The position numbers were made by a program, and so were the translations under genes. The notes beneath the pieces are model-generated. The model did not search any database, was not told the DNA's origin, and was given only the letters and a program-made list of their open reading frames with translations. Source: a bacterium (lineage in GTDB: Bacteria; Patescibacteriota; Minisyncoccia; Phycocordibacterales; GWA1-40-21). Taken from it: 38,573 bases of DNA. Positions within the stretch are counted from its first letter, which is position 1. Every line of letters begins with the position of its first letter. The DNA lies in contig JBAWVR010000002.1 in NCBI GenBank assembly GCA_037147155.1, positions 1 through 38,573 on the forward strand, given 5' to 3'. Below, piece after piece: positions 4,165 to 25,713 of this stretch.

Positions 4165-5459
4165 AAGCATTTCAAATAATTTTATTAGGCTTTTTTGTGG
4201 CTCTAGCCATTGCCGGTTTAGTGGCTTTTGCAATGTTTCGTGGAGGTAGTCAGCAGGCTTCAACTATTACAGTTTGGGGAATGGTGCCTAATGAATCAAT
4301 TGATAAAATTCTCGGCGAATTACGTTCTAGTCGCAATGGAGCCGTGAACATGACTTACATTTACAAAGATCCAGCTGTTTTTGATAGCGATTTGTTAAAC
4401 GCTATCGCTAGTGGTAAAAGTCCGGATGCGGTCATTCTACCGAATGATTTGATTTATCGTTATTCTGATAAAATAATTCCTGTCCCATATTCTAATCTTA
4501 GTGAAAGTGATTTTAGAGATACTTATGTAGACATGGCTTCAGTTTATCTAACAACTAATGGAATTTTGGCTTTACCGATTAGTGTTGATCCGTTGATTAT
4601 GTATTGGAATAGAGATATTTTTAATACCACAGGGAAAACTAATCCACCAGCCTATTGGGATGAATTACAAGCTATGGTACCGGATTTTGTAGTTAAAAAT
4701 GCTAGCAAGGACATTATGCGCTCAGGTGTCGCTTTTGGAGAATTTAGAAATGTTACACATCCCAAGGAACTCTTGACTCTGCTTATGATGCAAGCAGGCA
4801 GTCGTATGGTGGAGAATAATGCAGGTTATTACACTGCTAATCTAGACGAATCAACTACCGGTAGTGGTGTTTACCCAGCTAGTGCCGCTTTTAGATACTA
4901 CAGCGACTTTGCTGATCCAAATAAAATTGTCTATAGTTGGAATCGTTCTTTGAAGAATGATAAACAAACATTTATCGCAGGAGATTTGGCTGTTTATTTT
5001 GGTTTAGCTTCGGAATACAATGAGATAGCAGCCAAGAACCCTAATTTGAATTTTGGTATTTCCTCAGTTCCACAAAAACGTGATGCGCGTATTTTTATAA
5101 CAGATGGTTTGATGAATGGTTTTTCTATTTTGAAAGGAAGTGCCAATCCGTCCAACGCCCTCACTCAGATTACGAAAATTTTGGCACCAGATGTTTTGCA
5201 GTACTGGGTAGATTACGGAAAAATAGTTCCAGCTAGACGAGATATGTTAGCTACGACCAATAGTGATAATATTTTAAAAGTTTTATCATACCGTTCTGCT
5301 CTGTCAGCCAAAACCTGGATGGACCCAGATGGCAAAGAGACTGATAGAATATTTCAGCAGTCCATCGAATCAATATCCACTGGAAAAAATTATGTCTATG
5401 AAGCAATTGCTGATTTAAATGGCGGTATTAACTTATTATTAGCTAAATATAAAAAGTAA
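4161..5459 (+). CDS. membrane-anchored extracellular solute-binding-protein-like protein
   Basis: 432 aa with an N-terminal TM helix. Overall resemblance to family-1 periplasmic sugar-binding proteins. Its start overlaps the upstream stop (ATGA). No ABC permease or ATPase gene lies nearby. Confidence 0.5.
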   Translation: MKAFQIILLGFFVALAIAGLVAFAMFRGGSQQASTITVWGMVPNESIDKILGELRSSRNGAVNMTYIYKDPAVFDSDLLNAIASGKSPDAVILPNDLIYRYSDKIIPVPYSNLSESDFRDTYVDMASVYLTTNGILALPISVDPLIMYWNRDIFNTTGKTNPPAYWDELQAMVPDFVVKNASKDIMRSGVAFGEFRNVTHPKELLTLLMMQAGSRMVENNAGYYTANLDESTTGSGVYPASAAFRYYSDFADPNKIVYSWNRSLKNDKQTFIAGDLAVYFGLASEYNEIAAKNPNLNFGISSVPQKRDARIFITDGLMNGFSILKGSANPSNALTQITKILAPDVLQYWVDYGKIVPARRDMLATTNSDNILKVLSYRSALSAKTWMDPDGKETDRIFQQSIESISTGKNYVYEAIADLNGGINLLLAKYKK

Positions 5460-5908
5460 TGAAGAAATATTTATTAACATCTTTTTTGATTTCAATCTTT
5501 TTTGTTACTTCTGTTGGCCCAGTTTTTGCTCAGAGTGAATTGCCATCCAAACCCGTTACACCCAGCAGTTTTAGTGGCCTAGTAAATTGCGGCAACAAGA
5601 TTGTGAATGGCAAAATCGATCCGTCGGACCAATGTACTTTTGATAAGTTGGTGGAAATGTTTAAATATATAATGAAGTACGCTCTATGGCTGATTATGCT
5701 GGCTATGGTCGGAGTCTTTGTTTTTATGGGCTTTATGTATATCAAATCGCAGGGTAGTTCTGCTGAAGTTAAAAAAGCCTGGGATATGATGAAAAAAATG
5801 GCCATCGGTGTATTTTGGATGCTATGTGCCTGGATTATTGTTTATACAATTTTATCTCAATTGGGTAATGATAAGACAAATATTTTGAGATTTTTTAGCA
5901 AACCATAA
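5459..5908 (+). CDS. T4SS-pilin-like (TrbC/VirB2-type) small membrane protein, paralog 1
   Basis: Signal peptide ending VFAQS, then two TM helices separated by a short basic loop (YIKSQGSSAEVKKAWD). The start overlaps the upstream stop (TAATG). Confidence 0.6.
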   Translation: MKKYLLTSFLISIFFVTSVGPVFAQSELPSKPVTPSSFSGLVNCGNKIVNGKIDPSDQCTFDKLVEMFKYIMKYALWLIMLAMVGVFVFMGFMYIKSQGSSAEVKKAWDMMKKMAIGVFWMLCAWIIVYTILSQLGNDKTNILRFFSKP

Positions 5909-5934
5909 TAATTAAACATAAATTAATAACAAAT

Positions 5935-6270
5935 ATGAAAAAAATATTATTTATTTTACTTGCCTGGAGTCTGCCAATGTTTTTTGTTTTTGCTGCCAGT
6001 TCCGCCACTTTGGATAATCCATTAAAATGGGATACTTTGGAGGGGGCAGTGGCTGGTATTATGAGTGTGATTGTTAAAGTTGGTGCCATTGCTGTCATTC
6101 TAGCCTTTATTTGGGTAGGTTGGATGTATGTTAAGGCTCAGGGAGCACCAAAAGATATCGAGGCTGCACACAAGGCTTTTCAATACACAGTTATTGGCGC
6201 TTTGGTTTTATTAGGAGCTGATGTGATTGCTAATCTGATTGCTGGTACAGTCAAAACTATTCAAAAATAA
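5935..6270 (+). CDS. T4SS-pilin-like protein, paralog 2 (most canonical)
   Basis: Signal peptide; LDNPL motif; TM1; loop YVKAQGAPKDIEAAHKAF; TM2. This is the typical layout of CPR pilin-family proteins. Confidence 0.75.
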   Translation: MKKILFILLAWSLPMFFVFAASSATLDNPLKWDTLEGAVAGIMSVIVKVGAIAVILAFIWVGWMYVKAQGAPKDIEAAHKAFQYTVIGALVLLGADVIANLIAGTVKTIQK

Positions 6271-6272
6271 TT

Positions 6273-7061
6273 ATGAAAAAAACTACCCCAGCTTTATTGC
6301 TTTCTAGTCTGATTGTGGCACTTAGTCCGTTTGTGGCCTCAGCCTATTCTGCTACCAATATTAAAGATTTATTGCAGGGTACAGTGGATAATATTTTGAA
6401 ACCAGTTGTGGTAATTTTAATCGGTTTGGCAGTTTTGGCGACTCTTTGGAATGGTTTTAAGATTGTTAAAGAAAGCGGGGGTAAAGATATTGCCAAATAT
6501 CGCACAGCTTTAATTATGAGTATTATTGCTCTAGCCGTTATGGTTAGCTTCTGGGGAATTATTGGGATAATGCGTGATACTTTTGGTTTGACTCGTTCAG
6601 ATAGCGTACTTAATCGTTTGGGTAGTGGCTCTACAAATATTAACGGCCAGATAGTCTCTGGTTCGAATGCTCAGTTTACAGCCGGATCTGCAGAGTCAAT
6701 ATTTTTAAATAACTCTAGCCAAAATACCACTATTAAAAATAGTTATAGTTCAGGTGCTGGTACTATTGATGGAGCCGGTTTTGATACAAAGTCTATTGAC
6801 GGTGTGGGTGTAGTCCAAACAGCGGGTGCTAGTAGCGGTTCATTTCAAAGTATAGATGCAAATGGCAATATGATTAGTCCTCAGAATGATGCAATAAAAA
6901 CTGTTGGTGGTTCTGGTAATGCTAACTCTAATAATGATTCAGTAGTTAGTGATATGTATGGTAACCAGGGTGCAGGCTGGCAGGGCACTAAACAAGTAGA
7001 TACTTTCAATAATACTGTCGCCAAGCCAACCAATGGTTTTATTAATTGGATATTTAAGTAA
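6273..7061 (+). CDS. T4SS-pilin-like protein, paralog 3, with a long Ser/Gly/Asn-rich C-terminal extension
   Basis: Signal peptide, two TM helices and the loop KIVKESGGKDIAKYR, followed by about 150 aa of low-complexity tail. Confidence 0.6.
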   Translation: MKKTTPALLLSSLIVALSPFVASAYSATNIKDLLQGTVDNILKPVVVILIGLAVLATLWNGFKIVKESGGKDIAKYRTALIMSIIALAVMVSFWGIIGIMRDTFGLTRSDSVLNRLGSGSTNINGQIVSGSNAQFTAGSAESIFLNNSSQNTTIKNSYSSGAGTIDGAGFDTKSIDGVGVVQTAGASSGSFQSIDANGNMISPQNDAIKTVGGSGNANSNNDSVVSDMYGNQGAGWQGTKQVDTFNNTVAKPTNGFINWIFK

Positions 7062-7065
7062 AAGT

Positions 7066-7413
7066 ATGAAAAATATTTTACTAGCTTTTACAGTTTTGGC
7101 ACCAATATTTACTTTTGCAGCCAATCTAAAGACAGATTATTTGAGATCTTTTTTTGGCAGTGCCACAACCATCATTACAAGCTTAGCTGTTTTGGTAATT
7201 TCTATCACCGTTCTGTATTTGATATTAAGTGTGGTTTCTTTTATGAGAAATAATATGATTGATAAAGCCAAGAGGGCTGAGGCGGCTACGGGAATCTTGT
7301 GGAGTGTTATAGCTATTGCTGTTATGGTGTCTATTTGGGGTATAGTTTCAATTCTCCAGGGCATGTTTTTTAGTGATCTTTCTGGTCAGGTATTCAACGG
7401 TTCAATTAAATAA
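7066..7413 (+). CDS. T4SS-pilin-like protein, paralog 4
   Basis: The in-frame ATG at 7066 gives MKNILLAFTVL.. with a signal peptide. Two TM helices with a basic loop. Confidence 0.6.
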   Translation: MKNILLAFTVLAPIFTFAANLKTDYLRSFFGSATTIITSLAVLVISITVLYLILSVVSFMRNNMIDKAKRAEAATGILWSVIAIAVMVSIWGIVSILQGMFFSDLSGQVFNGSIK

Positions 7414-7650
7414 AAGGCATTAAACCTTACAAGTTCTGTACAACTTTCGTTTATTTTTAAGTAAAAGCTCAGGGCCTTACAAAGCTCTGAGTGTTCGTTA
7501 TTGTGATTGGGTTGTGGGTGTAAAGTAATATTTAAAGTTATCTACACCGCATCTTTTTTACTATTTGCTTTTTTGTATTTGATGATATAATTATAAGGTA
7601 AAAAGGTCATAGGTCAAAAATTATTAATAAATATTTTTACAAAATAAAAA

Positions 7651-8004
7651 ATGAAAAAAGTTTTAGCAATCAGTTTGTCATCAGTATTGCCATTTATGGC
7701 TTTAGCTGCCACACCAAGTACTCAGTATATTTCAACTTGGATTGAACAAATCCAAAGTATTATTAACAGTCTCGTTCCAGTATTGGTTGGTTTGTCCGTT
7801 CTATTCTTCATTTGGAGTATTTTCAAGTACATCAAATCTGATGATCCAAAGACCAAGGGCGACGCTGCAAAGGGAATGATGTGGGGTATTGTTTTCTTGG
7901 CTGTTATCGTTTCAGTTTGGGGATTGGTTGCATTATTGCAAAACATCTTCGGTGTTGATACTCGTGGTGTAAGTAATGTTCGAAACCTCGTACCTACAAA
8001 CTAA
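7651..8004 (+). CDS. T4SS-pilin-like protein, paralog 5
   Basis: Signal peptide (MALAATP), TM1, loop YIKSDDPKTKGDAAKG, TM2. Confidence 0.65.
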   Translation: MKKVLAISLSSVLPFMALAATPSTQYISTWIEQIQSIINSLVPVLVGLSVLFFIWSIFKYIKSDDPKTKGDAAKGMMWGIVFLAVIVSVWGLVALLQNIFGVDTRGVSNVRNLVPTN

Positions 8005-8013
8005 TTTAAGTTT

Positions 8014-8256
8014 ATGTCTGCTGACCTTTTAATTAACAAAATTTTAGAAAATATAATCAACCCGATGGTTTATTTTCTGATGGTTGTTGCTATTATTGTC
8101 TTTATTTGGGGATTAGTTCAATATATAAATAAAGAAGCACCGGCTGACAAACATAAAGAAGGTATCGATAAAATGATCTATGGAGCTATCGGTCTGACGA
8201 TTATGTTTTCAGCTCAGGGAATAATTCACATTTTGTTAGATTTTTTAGGTAGGTAG
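8014..8256 (+). CDS. T4SS-pilin-like protein, paralog 6, without an obvious signal peptide
   Basis: 80 aa with two TM helices and the loop YINKEAPADKHKEGIDK. Same core layout as paralogs 1-5. Confidence 0.5.
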   Translation: MSADLLINKILENIINPMVYFLMVVAIIVFIWGLVQYINKEAPADKHKEGIDKMIYGAIGLTIMFSAQGIIHILLDFLGR

Positions 8257-8960: not shown

Positions 8961-9041
8961 GCGCGAGTGGCGAAATTGGTACACGCACTTGCCTTAGGAG
9001 CAAGCGGGGCAACCCATGGAGGTTCAAATCCTCTCTCGCGC
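8961..9041 (+). tRNA. tRNA-Leu (anticodon TAG)
   Basis: Acceptor gcgcgag/ctcgcgc, anticodon loop cttagga, long variable arm, T-loop ttcaaat. No encoded CCA. Confidence 0.9.
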
Positions 9042-9078
9042 ACAAATTAAAATCCCCGAATGGGGATATTTTAATTTG
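9042..9078 (+). terminator. intrinsic terminator after tRNA-Leu(TAG)
   Basis: caaattaaaatcccc gaat ggggatattttaatttg. The stem can extend into the tRNA acceptor 3' strand and its downstream inverted copy. Confidence 0.8.
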
Positions 9079-9266
9079 TGCGCGAGAAACGAGCAATGGG
9101 AATTGCTCGTGTGAGGATTTGAAAGACGGAAGAATATTTTTAGTAAAAAATATTCTGAGTCGGGGTTGCGACCAGTTTTGGCTGACTGAGACAAAACTGA
9201 GTTGTGACCGAGTCCTCCTTATTCTGTCTCGAAGACGATCAGTAAATTATTCCTGACCGAGTCCTT
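9079..9266 (+). repeat. tRNA-matched trailing module, unit A
   Basis: tgcgcgaga + 25-nt hairpin + gaggatttgaa is the inverted tRNA-Leu 3' end. Then GAAAGACGG (9121), a hairpin with a tagtaa loop (9141), GAGtCGGGGTTGCG (9157), a second hairpin, GTGACC (9204), and tcctc pairing back. Tail: aattattcctgaccgagtcct. Confidence 0.7.
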
Positions 9267-9288
9267 TAAATGTGCTATTATTATCTCT

Positions 9289-10146
9289 ATGGAAAAGGAA
9301 CAATTAAGTAATACTGTTAAACAATTTAGTCCGGAATATCAGTCTACATTAGATGAGATTGATAAAATTTCAAACCTTTCACAGGAAGAGCAGGGAAAAT
9401 ACATTAATGAAAGAATAAAAAAACTTTCTGATACTGCTGAAAAAGGAGAAATGTCGACAAGGGGTAAAAAAGTCTGCAATGGTTTTGTTGGTCCAGACAT
9501 GCTGATTCGAAGGAATATTCTTGTTGATCCAATTGTCTTAGATGACCCTTCTTTGTATCAAACCATGTTCGAAACCTTGAAGATGTTTAGAGGGGTTGAA
9601 CACATGAAAGATAAAACCCTGAGACAATTACATATAGGGCTTATTCAGTGGACGATTTCGAAATATTTCGGTAACGAGATCCCGTATAAGGAAACAGAAA
9701 CTGAAAATCGGAATTTTTATATGGAGCGAAGTGGGGCAGATAGCCCGGAAATATCAATATCTGAGCTTAAGGGCAAGGGGTTTGCGGTTTGTGCAGAAAA
9801 AAGTTCTGTAGCCGAAAACCTTTTGGTTTTTTCTGGTCTCGAAGCAAAACTAGTAGTGTCCACCGAATGCCGCATTCCAGAAGAAGCTGAAGAGAGTGGA
9901 CACTATTATAATATTATTTTGGGACCAACCCAAAAGTTTATTTATGATCCGTCCAATCCTAAGTTGGTCACTAATAGTAATGGAAAATTGATCAATTATA
10001 ATCCAGCGATGTATCGGATTAGCGATGAGGATTATGAGAAGTTGATGAATGGAGGGGCGGTAACTGTAGTCCATGTGGACACGGAGGTGTCGGATGGTAT
10101 AGAAAAAAATATCGAAAGTCGACGAGTGTATGGTGGGGTAAAATAA
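9289..10146 (+). CDS. hypothetical protein, possibly with a transglutaminase-like cysteine peptidase fold
   Basis: 285-aa ORF. An ordered Cys..His..Asp pattern (GKGFAVCAEKSSVAENLL, SGHYYNII, YDPSNP) resembles the transglutaminase-core triad. This is a weak call from motif only. Confidence 0.6.
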   Translation: MEKEQLSNTVKQFSPEYQSTLDEIDKISNLSQEEQGKYINERIKKLSDTAEKGEMSTRGKKVCNGFVGPDMLIRRNILVDPIVLDDPSLYQTMFETLKMFRGVEHMKDKTLRQLHIGLIQWTISKYFGNEIPYKETETENRNFYMERSGADSPEISISELKGKGFAVCAEKSSVAENLLVFSGLEAKLVVSTECRIPEEAEESGHYYNIILGPTQKFIYDPSNPKLVTNSNGKLINYNPAMYRISDEDYEKLMNGGAVTVVHVDTEVSDGIEKNIESRRVYGGVK

Positions 10147-10272
10147 TCAAACTGGTATATAGTAAGTAATCGGTGATTAAATAGCAAAGTAAGCAACAAT
10201 GATTTCCAAAATAGAAGTGGCAATTTTCACCTTGCCTTTTCTCATTTTATTTGTTATTTTAATGTAGCAGAC

Positions 10273-10352
10273 AAAATATGCGCCCATACCCGCTCACTTG
10301 AAGACAGGTGCTTCGGGCAAGGCTCAGTTGGCTGATAGTGTTGGTAAAATAT
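10273..10352 (+). repeat. degenerate duplicate of the tRNA-Lys 5' portion with a 33-nt insertion
   Basis: aaaatatgcgcccata occurs at 10273 and again at 10346, the true tRNA start. The upstream copy continues, after the insert cccgctcacTTGAAGACAGGtgcttcgggcaag, with gctcagttgg (the D-arm sequence). Confidence 0.5.
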
Positions 10353-10425
10353 GCGCCCATAGCTCAGTTGGTAGAGCAGTCGCCTCTTAAGCGATTGGTC
10401 GTAGGTTCGAATCCTACTGGGCGCA
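10353..10425 (+). tRNA. tRNA-Lys (anticodon CTT)
   Basis: Acceptor gcgccca/tgggcgc, anticodon loop tcttaag context (cgcctcttaagcg), T-loop ttcgaat. No encoded CCA. Confidence 0.92.
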
Positions 10426-10479
10426 CATCATAAATATTAAAAACCACCAGCTGTCCCTGGTGGTTTTGTTTATGATGTG
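10426..10479 (+). terminator. long intrinsic terminator hairpin after tRNA-Lys
   Basis: Inner stem aaaccaccag/ctggtggttt plus outer stem cacatcataaa/tttatgatgtg, which starts in the last nucleotides of the tRNA. Confidence 0.8.
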
Positions 10480-10612
10480 CGAGCCGGAGTGCGACGGCAC
10501 GAGGCGGGGTCGCGGGTTTTTCTAGCAAGAAAAAACCTGTGACCACAATAAGTGTGCGCCCACAAAATTATTTTTCGAAGGAGAAAAGCGTACTCGCGGT
10601 CCTACCAGTTTT
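10480..10612 (+). repeat. tRNA-matched trailing module, unit B (divergent arms)
   Basis: GCCGGAG-tgc gacg gca-CGAGGCGGGGTCGCGG (10505), a hairpin with a tagcaa loop (10523), GTGACC (10539), then gtgtgcgccca (antisense of the tRNA-Lys acceptor end) and a tcctaccag T-arm-like copy. Confidence 0.6.
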
Positions 10613-10658
10613 ATTTAATGAGTACTTTTATTTCTGAATATTCTAGAATACGATTATT

Positions 10659-11279
10659 CTACCTTTTGAAATAATTATCAACGGTTGGTTCTAGGTCGGC
10701 AACTTCGTCTAATATTTTATAGTAGTTACCTTTCAAAAGAAAATCTTCTGAATGAAAACCCCAAGTTACAGCTATTGATCCAACACCAGCCTTTTCTGCT
10801 TCAATTAGATCACCGAGAGTGTCGGTAATAAATAAACAGTCTTCCTGCTTTAAATCATTATTGACCATTACCATCTTTATTTTTTCAACTTTACTTTTAT
10901 GTACATCATTACCAAGTATTTCACCAAAAAAGTGCCTTATATTATGCTTGGTCATAAAGTCACGAATAAGATCAGTTTTTGTAGATGAAATCACAACCAT
11001 TTTATATTTTTCAGATAGATTTTTAAGAGCGTCAGTCATCCCTGGAAAAACTTTTACGTCATTCAATAAACCTCTGCCGTATTCTATAAAATAATCAATT
11101 TCATGATTACACTTATCATCATGAACACTATGTTTTTCGAAATCATTAATATTTCCCGTAAAAAAGTTTTGGTAATTATCTATGGTTATATTTGGACAGG
11201 TTACTTTTTGCGCTATATAACCATTGTTCAGAGAGTCAGCGATCACACCGTCAAAATCAAATAAAACATACTTATTCAT
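10659..11279 (-). CDS. HAD-superfamily hydrolase (phosphatase-like)
   Basis: Motif I LFDFDGVIADS, motif II VISST, motif IV ITDTLGD. Confidence 0.8.
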   Translation of the reverse strand: MNKYVLFDFDGVIADSLNNGYIAQKVTCPNITIDNYQNFFTGNINDFEKHSVHDDKCNHEIDYFIEYGRGLLNDVKVFPGMTDALKNLSEKYKMVVISSTKTDLIRDFMTKHNIRHFFGEILGNDVHKSKVEKIKMVMVNNDLKQEDCLFITDTLGDLIEAEKAGVGSIAVTWGFHSEDFLLKGNYYKILDEVADLEPTVDNYFKR

Positions 11280-11323
11280 TCCAAAAGTATATCATAATTA
11301 CCCAGATGGCAGAAAGTTTTCCC

Positions 11324-11342
11324 TCGAGTCCCACCTCGGGCG
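11324..11342 (-). repeat. inverted copy of the tRNA-Leu(TAA) 3' end, with no full module
   Basis: The plus strand tcgagtcccacctcgggc equals the sense sequence of the minus-strand tRNA, giving an 18-nt inverted repeat across the terminator. It is followed only by gggaaaac before the HAD gene. Confidence 0.6.
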
Positions 11343-11344
11343 TC

Positions 11345-11372
11345 AAAAAAACACCTTACGGTGTTTATTTTG
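11345..11372 (-). terminator. intrinsic terminator after tRNA-Leu(TAA)
   Basis: aaacacc gtaa ggtgttt plus a T-run, read on the minus strand. Confidence 0.8.
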
Positions 11373-11455
11373 TGCCCGAGGTGGGACTCGAACCCACACG
11401 GCCTTACGACCCCGAGATTTTAAGTCTCGTACGGCTACCATTACGTCACTCGGGC
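11373..11455 (-). tRNA. tRNA-Leu (anticodon TAA)
   Basis: Minus strand gcccgagtgacgtaatggtag..gagacttaaaatctc..long variable arm..gggttcgagtcccacctcgggca. Confidence 0.9.
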
Positions 11456-11456
11456 A

Positions 11457-11593
11457 TTTTGGGGCCTTGCGGCCTGGGGTATCATCGGTCACAACTCTCC
11501 TTCACACCGTCGTGTTCGGTCGGTCGCGACCCCGCCTCGCGGCCGAACCTTGCTAGGTTCGGACTTCGTTCGCTGCGGCTTTCGATTCTCCCC
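11457..11593 (-). repeat. tRNA-matched trailing module, unit C (after tRNA-Cys)
   Basis: Minus strand reads ggggagaatcgaa (inverted Cys T-arm), AGCCGcAGCGAACGAAGTC, a hairpin with a tagcaa loop, CGAGGCGGGGTCGCGACC, a hairpin, GTGACC, then ccccaggcc (a direct copy of the tRNA 3' end). Confidence 0.65.
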
Positions 11594-11619
11594 AAAAAAT
11601 CGCTAACGCGATTTTTTTG
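11594..11619 (-). terminator. intrinsic terminator after tRNA-Cys
   Basis: aaaaaaatcgc gtta gcgatttttt on the minus strand. Confidence 0.8.
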
Positions 11620-11691
11620 AGGCCTGGGGGAGAATCGAACTCCCGCATATTCCTTTTGCAGAGGAATGCTTTACCACTTAGCAACCAGGCC
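11620..11691 (-). tRNA. tRNA-Cys (anticodon GCA)
   Basis: Minus strand ggcctgg..cctctgcaaaagg..gggagttcgattctcccccaggcct. Confidence 0.9.
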
Positions 11692-20724: not shown

Positions 20725-20828
20725 ATCTAAATAGTATAAGATAGTTACAAAATTTTGCCAAACCACCAACCGCATTTACTTATAGACATTTTCTAAATAT
20801 TGGTTATAATAGCCAGGTAAGTAAATAT

Positions 20829-20912
20829 GCGCAGGTGGCGGAGTGGTCAATCGCAGCAGACTGTAAATCTGTCGCCCATTGGGCTACGGGGGTTCAAATC
20901 CCTCCCTGCGCA
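20829..20912 (+). tRNA. tRNA-Tyr (anticodon GTA)
   Basis: Acceptor gcgcagg/cctgcgc, anticodon loop actgtaaat context, long variable arm, T-loop ttcaaat. Confidence 0.92.
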
Positions 20913-20954
20913 CACGAAAACAATCGACCGGAGACGGTCGATTTTTTCTTTGCG
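20913..20954 (+). terminator. intrinsic terminator after tRNA-Tyr
   Basis: aatcgaccg gaga cggtcgatt plus a T-run. It is embedded in a longer imperfect hairpin that reaches the tRNA 3' end and its inverted copy. Confidence 0.75.
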
Positions 20955-21092
20955 TGCGCAGGGAGGGATTTGAAAGACGGAGCACACGGAGCGGAGCTAA
21001 GTCCAAGTCTACCAAGACTTGGGTGCGAGTCCGGGTCGGAAAAATTCACGAGTGACGATGAGTGAATTATTTCTGACAATTCCCTCCCTGCG
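20955..21092 (+). repeat. tRNA-matched trailing module, unit E1 (long form)
   Basis: 20955-20974 is a perfect 20/20 reverse complement of tRNA-Tyr 20893-20912. Then AGACGGAGCACACGGAGCGGAGCTAAGTC, a hairpin, GGTGCGAGTCCGGGTCGG, a hairpin with a GTGACGAT loop, ATTTCTGACAATT, and the direct copy ccctccctgcg. Confidence 0.75.
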
Positions 21093-21218
21093 TAGGGATT
21101 TGAAAGACGGGAGAATATTTTTAGTAAAAAATTTGCTGAGACGGGGTCGCGAGTACTTAGACTTTTGAAATTTTGTAATTTCAAAAGACTTAGTAACTCG
21201 TGACCAAATCCCTCGCAC
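21093..21218 (+). repeat. tRNA-matched trailing module, unit E2 (short form)
   Basis: tagggattt GAAAGACGGG, a hairpin with a tagtaa loop, GAGaCGGGGTCGCGAG (21142), a long hairpin, CGTGACC (21200), then aaatccctcgca pairing back to the 5' arm. Confidence 0.75.
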
Positions 21219-21265
21219 ACTATGTACGTTTGGCTTTTCTCTCGTTTTACGCTAATATACACCTT

Positions 21266-25563: not shown

Positions 25564-25713
25564 ATTTACCTTTGAGATTCAAAGGCAAAATCAGTTTATC
25601 ATAAATGTTTTTAGAGGACAAGATGTTTTGACAATGTGATATAATGTGTGTTATACTAACTTTAGAGTTCTCTAACGTTTCCAGTATTAACCCAGGATGA
25701 AAGGAAGTGCCTC

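Follow-up and report, generated by a model that had tools for sequence, protein, structure and literature searches.

The transfer RNA (tRNA)-linked repeats (TLRs) of Escherichia coli, reportedly treated by Egan and Landy in 1978 and by Rudd in 1999, are compared here with a locus from a member of the Patescibacteria: the tRNA-Lys(CUU) gene of a 38,573-nucleotide (nt) stretch of DNA (NCBI GenBank assembly GCA_037147155.1, contig JBAWVR010000002.1, positions 1 to 38,573 of the forward strand; lineage Patescibacteriota, Minisyncoccia, Phycocordibacterales, GWA1-40-21), hereafter called the window. This gene is preceded by a partial copy of its own 5' part (the pseudo-copy) and followed by a folded unit (the Lys module). 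TLR units stand directly behind tRNA or ribosomal RNA genes, singly or in short tandem, partly behind the first terminator, and re-use the end sequence of the preceding gene; most are without known function, and the repeat has been proposed as a processing signal (Stenum et al. 2021, PMC8144298). The Lys module is similar in that it also trails an RNA gene, occurs singly or in tandem and re-uses gene-end sequence. However, TLRs end in an 18–19 base pair (bp) direct copy of the gene's 3' end, whereas the Lys unit has approximately 4–5 nt of direct copy (CACAA) together with an inverted copy of the gene end plus trailer. The Lys module also has a conserved three-helix core with covariation, unlike TLRs, and TLRs have no counterpart of the 5' pseudo-copy. 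The sense copy that marks a TLR was not found (there is none of 9 nt or more of the tRNA 3' part within 700 nt of tRNA-Lys), and a blastn search with positions 10427–10612 against 5,426 E. coli genomes gave no match.

Attachment sites of integrated islands and prophages also carry partial tRNA copies (e.g. Williams 2002), and these sites resemble the window in that a fragment of a tRNA gene stands beside an intact copy. They differ from it in several respects: in the window the copied part is the 5' one, the copies are spaced by 73 nt with neither an integrase nor an island between them, and the layout is conserved from species to species. Searches of phage and plasmid collections returned matches to the tRNA body only. 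No description of tRNA-trailing modules or 5' pseudo-copies was found in Rfam 15 or in the searchable literature on Patescibacteria; this dressing of tRNA genes, of which the present locus is a well-kept and typical case, and its tRNA-Lys(CUU) variant are apparently undescribed.

We consider, with moderate confidence, that this is the usual, inherited setting of tRNA-Lys(CUU) in this group of Patescibacteria, comprising an RNA-structure module and a duplicated 5' piece, and not a recent scramble. An earlier note on this DNA, made from the sequence alone, had described the whole locus as rearranged or recombined versions of the same parts: this description holds in part for the upstream piece and the tail, but not for the main downstream unit.

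Locus structure and integrity

The locus comprises the following features:

10273–10288, + strand: copy of the tRNA 5' flank (AAAATAT) and tRNA nt 1–9 (GCGCCCATA), with a 16/16 match to 10346–10361
10289–10321, + strand: 33-nt insert between positions 9 and 10 of the pseudo-copy, with the hairpin CCCG..CACTTG-aaga-CAGGTG..CGGG
10322–10331, + strand: D-arm copy, tRNA nt 10–19 (GCTCAGTTGG), followed by a 14-nt spacer (10332–10345)
10353–10425, + strand: intact tRNA-Lys, anticodon CTT, CCA not encoded (ARAGORN; Rfam tRNA, 77.1 bits)
10422–10481, + strand: long hairpin, in which 10422–10434 pairs with TTTATGATGTGCG (10469–10481)
10476–10548, + strand: Lys-type three-helix module (57.4 bits, E 6e-12 with covariance model R1, described below)
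10549–10610, + strand: putative decayed start of a second unit, with GTGTGCGCCCA at 10552–10562, TTCGAAGGAG at 10574–10583 and GGTCCTACCAG at 10598–10608

The arrangement is not an assembly artefact, because three independent assemblies, which differ in both sample and pipeline, are 100% identical over the 601 bases from 10100 to 10700: a 78-kb ENA contig (megahit), a 13-kb JGI contig and a 3-kb ENA contig (SPAdes). Logan contigs from separate lake samples also cross the junctions with 0 differences, covering 9900–10389 (X1), 10101–10372 (X4) and 10397–10900 (X3), where X labels denote sequencing runs with Logan contigs. Integrity was judged from assembled contigs and not from raw reads, a measure that minor variants would escape. 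As the earlier note had expected, 10353–10425/6 is the sole tRNA call at the locus by both ARAGORN and Rfam: at the gathering score tRNA is the only Rfam 15 family to match, and scans of 10150–10680 and 20900–21230 at E<=10 added nothing but chance-level matches, with no further family in the former interval.

The downstream module

By sequence and predicted fold, the downstream unit is a full, intact member of a family of tRNA-trailing modules, and represents a Lys-specific subtype. This assignment is made because R1, a covariance model built from the Lys-type modules of 8 relatives with the window sequence left out, matches both the Lys unit and seven other modules in the window. Its top window match is 10476–10548, and the next seven (E<0.03) are the modules behind tRNA-Trp (2), Leu-TAG, Tyr (2), Leu-CAA and Cys. 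Window modules follow their tRNAs in a set order of terminator-like hairpin, inverted tRNA 3' part, core and direct tRNA 3' copy; the core consists of TTGAAAGACGG, a hairpin, GAGNCGGGGTCGCGA, a second hairpin and GTGACC, and there are often two units in tandem. A hammerhead-like reading of CUGAUGA..GAAA strings at the Trp locus was rejected, as the spacing and stems misfit and there is no Rfam ribozyme match.

At tRNA-Lys, the 5' arm of the long hairpin (10422–10434) combines the tRNA's 4 terminal nt, CGCA, with the 9-nt trailer; the hairpin encloses an intrinsic-terminator-like stem-loop (10440–10467), which is followed by TTTTGTTT. The module unit, including the inverted arm, spans 10469–10548. 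After the junction CGAG comes P2, in which GCC (10483–85) pairs with GGC (10503–05) around a GGA/GA internal loop and an inner stem GTGC/GCAC; P2 is followed by GG, P3 (10508–10544, GGTCGCGG..CCTGTGACC) and ACAA. The region folds with a z of -5.3.

It had been noted earlier that this unit lacks a full inverted T-arm and keeps a set of characteristic strings, and both observations were borne out. Lys is alone among the window's seven complete tRNAs in having no inverted T-arm copy downstream, and GGAGTGCGACGGCACGAGGCGGGGTCGCGG, a TAGCAA-loop hairpin, GTGACC (10539–10544) and GTGTGCGCCCA (10552–10562) are all present. In all ten Lys-type units compared, the arm that precedes CGAG matches, over 8–13 nt, the reverse complement of CGCA and the trailer of its own locus, with trailers that differ from one another. 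Since this arm rule holds in every species compared, the missing T-arm copy is a rule for tRNA-Lys, and not a deletion. The direct copy of the tRNA 3' part in these ten units is limited to CACA(A) after GACC, with 2–6 possible P1 pairs; in the other window modules it measures 10–16 nt.

Relatives were sampled as 120 tRNA-Lys(CUU) loci from species-representative genomes (at least 120 exist), retrieved with the first 38 nt of the tRNA as the query pattern and labelled L001 to L120; frequencies given below are among the loci listed. R1 has 27 matches at E<1e-3 on 100 of the listed loci, all of them in Patescibacteria-type records and none in other phyla. The layout TGCG-AG-GNC-GG-A-[P2]-GA-GNC-GG-GGTCG-[P3]-YGACC-ACAA follows tRNA-Lys(CUU) in at least nine relatives (L009, L011, L015, L023, L039, L040, L076, L083 and L120), whose records are of Kaiser-, Adler-, Nomura-, Paceibacteria-type and others. 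Folded singly, the ten Lys-type units all give the same two helices. In the alignment of eight relatives, the middle pair of GNC/GNC is G-C in 4, C-G in 3 and A-U in 1; 95.3% of cells are paired (83% in shuffles), and 8 pairs are changed on both sides, a count equalled in 0/500 shuffles and reaching at most 3 in slid controls. In 10/10 units the sense strand folds more stably than the antisense strand does, by a mean of 6.9 kcal/mol, and the ten units have 20 G.U pairs on the sense strand vs 6 on the antisense strand.

Because of this covariation, the sense-strand stability and the G.U bias, the module is most likely a structure of RNA, or at least strand-specific, produced by read-through of the terminator. 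The suggestion that this unit represents a rearranged or recombined form must therefore be abandoned, given the same form in at least nine species, the covariation and the best R1 match of the window.

The upstream pseudo-copy

The upstream piece is, to judge from its letters, a fragment of the tRNA 5' part (flank and nt 1–9, then nt 10–19) interrupted by a hairpin insertion. There are exactly two occurrences of the 16-mer AAAATATGCGCCCATA in the window (10273–10288 and 10346–10361), at a spacing of 73 nt, as first reported in the earlier note, and no third copy is found in the 38.5 kb even allowing 3 mismatches. The insert and the D-arm sequence that follows it were likewise confirmed at 10289–10321 and 10322–10331: the 10-mer GCTCAGTTGG is present exactly twice in the window (10322–10331 and 10362–10371), with an expectation of 0.06, and 0/100 shuffles gave two. 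Neither ARAGORN nor the Rfam tRNA model detects a tRNA in 10273–10345, even at E<=10. A nearby sense copy of a tRNA's own 5' part is seen for Lys alone among the window's seven complete tRNAs. Duplication and insertion at the DNA level, as proposed previously for this locus, would be the simplest origin of the split fragment.

The insert had also been called core-like. It does contain the 11-mer TTGAAGACAGG (10298–10308), which resembles the module junction, and two relatives (L032 and L034) have module-like strings in their own inserts, but model R1 finds no match on it. The insert hairpin folds no better than shuffled sequence (z about 0); the insert lacks a target-site duplication and its terminal inverted repeat is only 4 bp. 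A metagenome scan with GCGCCCATACCCGC listed 120 matches, which were chance matches on GC-rich contigs, none adjoining tRNA-Lys. A tandem-promoter reading of the 16-mer was rejected, as the two copies differ where the -10 box must lie.

Pseudo-copies in relatives

A pseudo-copy was defined as an exact repeat of the tRNA's own first 9 nt, at most 300 nt upstream and outside any tRNA. On this definition the 5' pseudo-copy is, as far as sequences can tell, lineage-wide, almost specific to tRNA-Lys(CUU) and found at approximately a fifth of sampled Patescibacteria loci. It precedes 13/75 tRNA-Lys(CUU) genes of Patescibacteria vs 1/190 genes for other tRNAs at these loci (Fisher 3.6e-7), and 0/33 tRNA-Lys(CUU) genes of other phyla. 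This recurrence refutes the reading of the upstream piece as a one-off local event. Non-tRNA stretches beginning with GCGCCCATA stand 62–260 nt upstream of the real gene in many Patescibacteria, and ARAGORN makes no tRNA call at the relatives' pseudo-copies. They occur at 16/53 loci without a co-oriented tRNA within 300 nt upstream vs 1/30 loci with one; pseudo-copies thus sit in the expected leader or promoter region.

Three builds can be distinguished. In build A (window, L032, L053, L118, L106 and L034), nt 1–9 or 1–13 are followed by a GC-rich hairpin and the D-arm remainder. The Vogelbacteria locus L032 reads GCGCCCATA, a 44-nt hairpin and GCTCAGTTGGTAGAG, with its junction at 9/10 as in the window; its insert aligns to the 33-nt insert of the window (8/2000 shuffles score equally well) and carries TTCGAC...GAGTCGGG, which recalls the module core. 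The L034 insert carries TTTGAAGGACGG, and in L053 a hairpin with the same ends (CCCGCCCG..CGGGCGGG) lies at position 13/14 instead. In build B (L025, L059, L101 and L014), a near-continuous nt 1–22 plus approximately 50 nt is present with a repeated flank of 11–26 nt, in up to at least three tandem units; the units of such arrays in some relatives measure 74–81 nt. In L014 (6761–7000 of JBBUCW010000009.1, from a Patescibacteria metagenome-assembled genome), at least three tandem units of approximately 80 nt stand upstream of tRNA-Lys, each opening with 22–23/25 nt of tRNA-Lys and containing GGTCGAAGACCAC; this array is partly masked by N.

Build C (L042, L044, L057, L110 and L041) is a well-folded two-hairpin leader element with an acceptor-stem look-alike, located 75–86 nt upstream of tRNA-Lys. 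In it GCGCCCATAT is paired with ATATGGGCG, followed by TTCGCTCGA, a variable hairpin that shows compensatory changes between L042 and L044, and CCTCACTC, which abuts the tRNA. Build C is strongly structured (z -3.9 to -5.3), whereas the window copy has a z of 0.06; the local pseudo-copy is probably decaying, having lost the self-pairing arm that relatives keep. Model R1 has no significant match on the pseudo-units of 12 relatives.

Two further loci have a tRNA-like start downstream of tRNA-Lys, at a distance of approximately 272–278 nt (L029, GCGCCCTTAGCTCAGTGGATAGAG..; L113, GCGCCCATAGCTCAATTGGATAGAG..). This start runs into a long GC-rich insert that begins past the anticodon-stem region, and ARAGORN makes no call; these may be intron-bearing tRNA genes.

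The tail

The strings of the tail follow GACCACAA, and the interval is read, from its likeness to complete units, as the decayed start of a second unit; here the earlier description in terms of rearranged parts holds in part. In L009, a second unit starts with GTGTGCGAG immediately after GACCAC. The tail (10549–10610) has no significant fold (z 0.58) and its core is missing; R1 has no + strand match on it at E<=10. Related arrangements were seen in sequencing runs. In a 422-nt contig of a related organism (lake runs X1 and X2), GTGACC is joined straight to the tRNA-Lys flank and start (33 nt), such that the contig aligns to window positions 10485–10544 and then 10347–10379. In a 309-nt contig of run X38, 10482–10562 (core and GTGTGCGCCCA) is present with one difference and with flanks unlike those of the window. 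Arrangements at the module end therefore vary between strains or species.

Surrounding genes

Two features lie between the locus and the gene upstream:

10219–10236, + strand: terminator-like hairpin and T run (consensus scan)
10232–10260, + strand: candidate tRNA-Lys promoter TTGCCT-17 nt-TATTTT (picked by eye; 8/12 positions, under the scan cut-off)

The hairpin probably ends the upstream open reading frame (ORF) of 285 amino acids (9289–10146), an orphan that has no Pfam match and whose sole homologue among 5.8 billion proteins is itself. If the candidate promoter is right, the pseudo-copy would fall within the 5' leader. AAAT or AAATAT abuts position +1 of tRNA-Tyr (20822–20828), Leu-CAA (25564–25570), Leu-TAA (11456–11462) and Lys (10346–10352), as well as the Lys pseudo-start, and may be a shared leader or processing context.

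Downstream of the locus is a HAD hydrolase with nearest homologues, at no more than 52% identity, in Parcubacteria and other Patescibacteria. Neighbouring genes include gyrA, a methyltransferase, a solute-binding protein, small T4SS-pilin-like proteins, rbfA and infB, and no integrase or transposase is found among the neighbouring ORFs checked on both sides. In a run of small ORFs (5459–8256), 5459–5908, 5935–6270 and 6273–7061 match the T4SS pilin family PF18895, as do two more ORFs in the corresponding stretch of L001. The gene order in the window from 8961 to 11691 is Leu(TAG)+, the orphan ORF, Lys+, HAD-, Leu(TAA)-, Cys-. In many relatives, Cys, Leu(TAA), Lys(CTT) and Leu(TAG) run in one direction, with Leu(TAG) 80–250 nt past Lys; the Lys+ ... 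Leu(TAA)- Cys- arrangement of the window is also that of L110 and L057.

Proposed origin and alternative explanations

The recurrence of these parts across deep lineages indicates that they are inherited or repeatedly regenerated and not a local accident. We propose that the pseudo-copy would have arisen when the promoter-proximal part of the gene was partially duplicated in tandem, and that into it a GC-rich, module-related hairpin would then have been inserted in the lineage leading to the window genome and the Vogelbacteria genome. Perfect tRNA-derived blocks require gene conversion or selection, and the exact blocks may owe their preservation to conversion with the adjacent gene or to selection for some function of the leader. 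On the 3' side, an inverted copy of the final 4 nt of the tRNA and of its trailer extends the terminator hairpin, with the module directly after it, and module RNA would be made when transcription reads through the terminator. As a working guess, and in line with the proposal made for TLRs, the copied tRNA ends may be processing signals, the 5' start copy for RNase P and the 3' end copy for 3' processing enzymes; such signals would cut leader and trailer out as discrete small RNAs.

Several points weigh against an inherited setting with an RNA-structure module. The pseudo-copy's link to the modules is weak: R1 has no match on the insert (10289–10321) at E<=10 with filters off, and the local pseudo-copy folds no better than shuffled sequence (z 0.06). 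An exact 16-mer that includes 7 nt of flank would be easier to reconcile with duplication or conversion in the fairly recent past than with an old relic, a point qualified by the presence of AAAT(AT) directly before tRNA-Tyr, Leu-CAA and Leu-TAA of the window as well. A good intrinsic terminator precedes the module core and read-through may be slight. The RNA runs searched match only the conserved tRNA body, from other organisms, and transcription and processing of leader and module are to that extent putative. The pattern used to pick loci fixes the first 25 nt of the tRNA and at least 120 loci are listed, making the frequencies rough; the loci were divided between Patescibacteria and other phyla by record title, and the covariation rests on few (8–10) and mutually related sequences.

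It is possible, though on balance unlikely, that the locus is selfish DNA only: small hairpin elements without proteins would insert at tRNA ends, copying or duplicating the target end, and the module, the stub and the pseudo-copy would be remnants of repeated insertion and subsequent decay, with no RNA role. The variability of the layout would fit such elements (1–3 tandem modules, 0–3 or more pseudo-units, distances of 62–260 nt), as would the same-ended hairpins at two positions of the pseudo-copy (9/10 in the window and L032, 13/14 in L053), the exact flank repeats in several genomes, the X38 contig with its near-identical 10482–10562 (1 difference) in unlike flanks, and the fusion of GTGACC to the tRNA-Lys flank and start in a relative's contig. 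However, the module's place and its special arm are shared by ten species belonging to different candidate classes, which show compensatory variation and not near-identity, and both stability and G.U pairs favour the transcribed strand. The insert, moreover, lacks a target-site duplication, and its terminal inverted repeat measures only 4 bp. No transposase, integrase or small GIY-YIG-like ORF is found near the locus or within 2.5 kb of 83 Patescibacteria tRNA-Lys loci, the GIY-YIG test around these 83 loci being a motif search only; as this search returned no ORF, the idea of a nuclease cassette has no backing at these loci.

A further reading is doubtful, namely that the 5' pseudo-copy and the 3' Lys-type module are two halves of one RNA device found only at tRNA-Lys(CUU) of Patescibacteria. 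By means of the spare acceptor-strand copies and the antisense arm, the precursor would choose between a processable cloverleaf and strand-swapped folds, or tRNA-processing enzymes would excise leader and trailer small RNAs; if true, the device would couple the supply of tRNA-Lys(CUU) to something else.

A regulatory switch in the precursor appears improbable. Here the spare acceptor strands (GCGCCCA upstream, GTGCGCCCA downstream) and the antisense trailer arm would tune maturation of tRNA-Lys(CUU), alternative precursor folds hiding or exposing the real acceptor stem and thereby tuning RNase P and 3' processing. Folded to minimum energy, 10273–10552 does pair the pseudo 5' strand with the tRNA 3' acceptor strand, displacing the real 5' strand, and the long hairpin takes up the 3'-terminal 4 nt of the tRNA; the pseudo-start also shares the -7..+9 context of the real start. 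However, the basis of this scheme is energy prediction only, and the relatives do not conform to it: their pseudo-strand often pairs inside its own unit (GCGCCCATAT..ATATGGGCG; in L053, GCTCCCA with TAGGGAG), others carry changes that would weaken pairing with the real 3' strand (GCACCCA, GTGCCCA), and the unit is absent from approximately four fifths of related loci.

Finally, the scar of an integrase-mediated island or prophage is highly improbable and largely refuted: although partial tRNA copies beside an intact tRNA (attL/attR) are its classic sign and the gene order does differ (Leu-TAG lies 1.3 kb upstream here with the orphan ORF between, and usually 80–250 nt after Lys in relatives), the repeat consists of the 5' part and flank and not the 3' part, just 57 nt separate the repeats, the 38.5-kb window has no third 16-mer even with 3 mismatches, no integrase is among the ORFs checked on either side, and the same layout recurs in many species.

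Significance

Patescibacteria have among the smallest and tightest bacterial genomes, yet folded modules of 80–100 nt trail most of their tRNA genes, and at tRNA-Lys(CUU) a spare copy of the gene start is retained as well. The nearest printed parallel, the TLRs, has been without known function since 1978. For annotators, pieces such as those described here are neither assembly errors nor integration scars. With its own module subtype and a near-specific pseudo-copy, tRNA-Lys(CUU) provides one defined type of locus at which transcription, processing and maturation can be studied.

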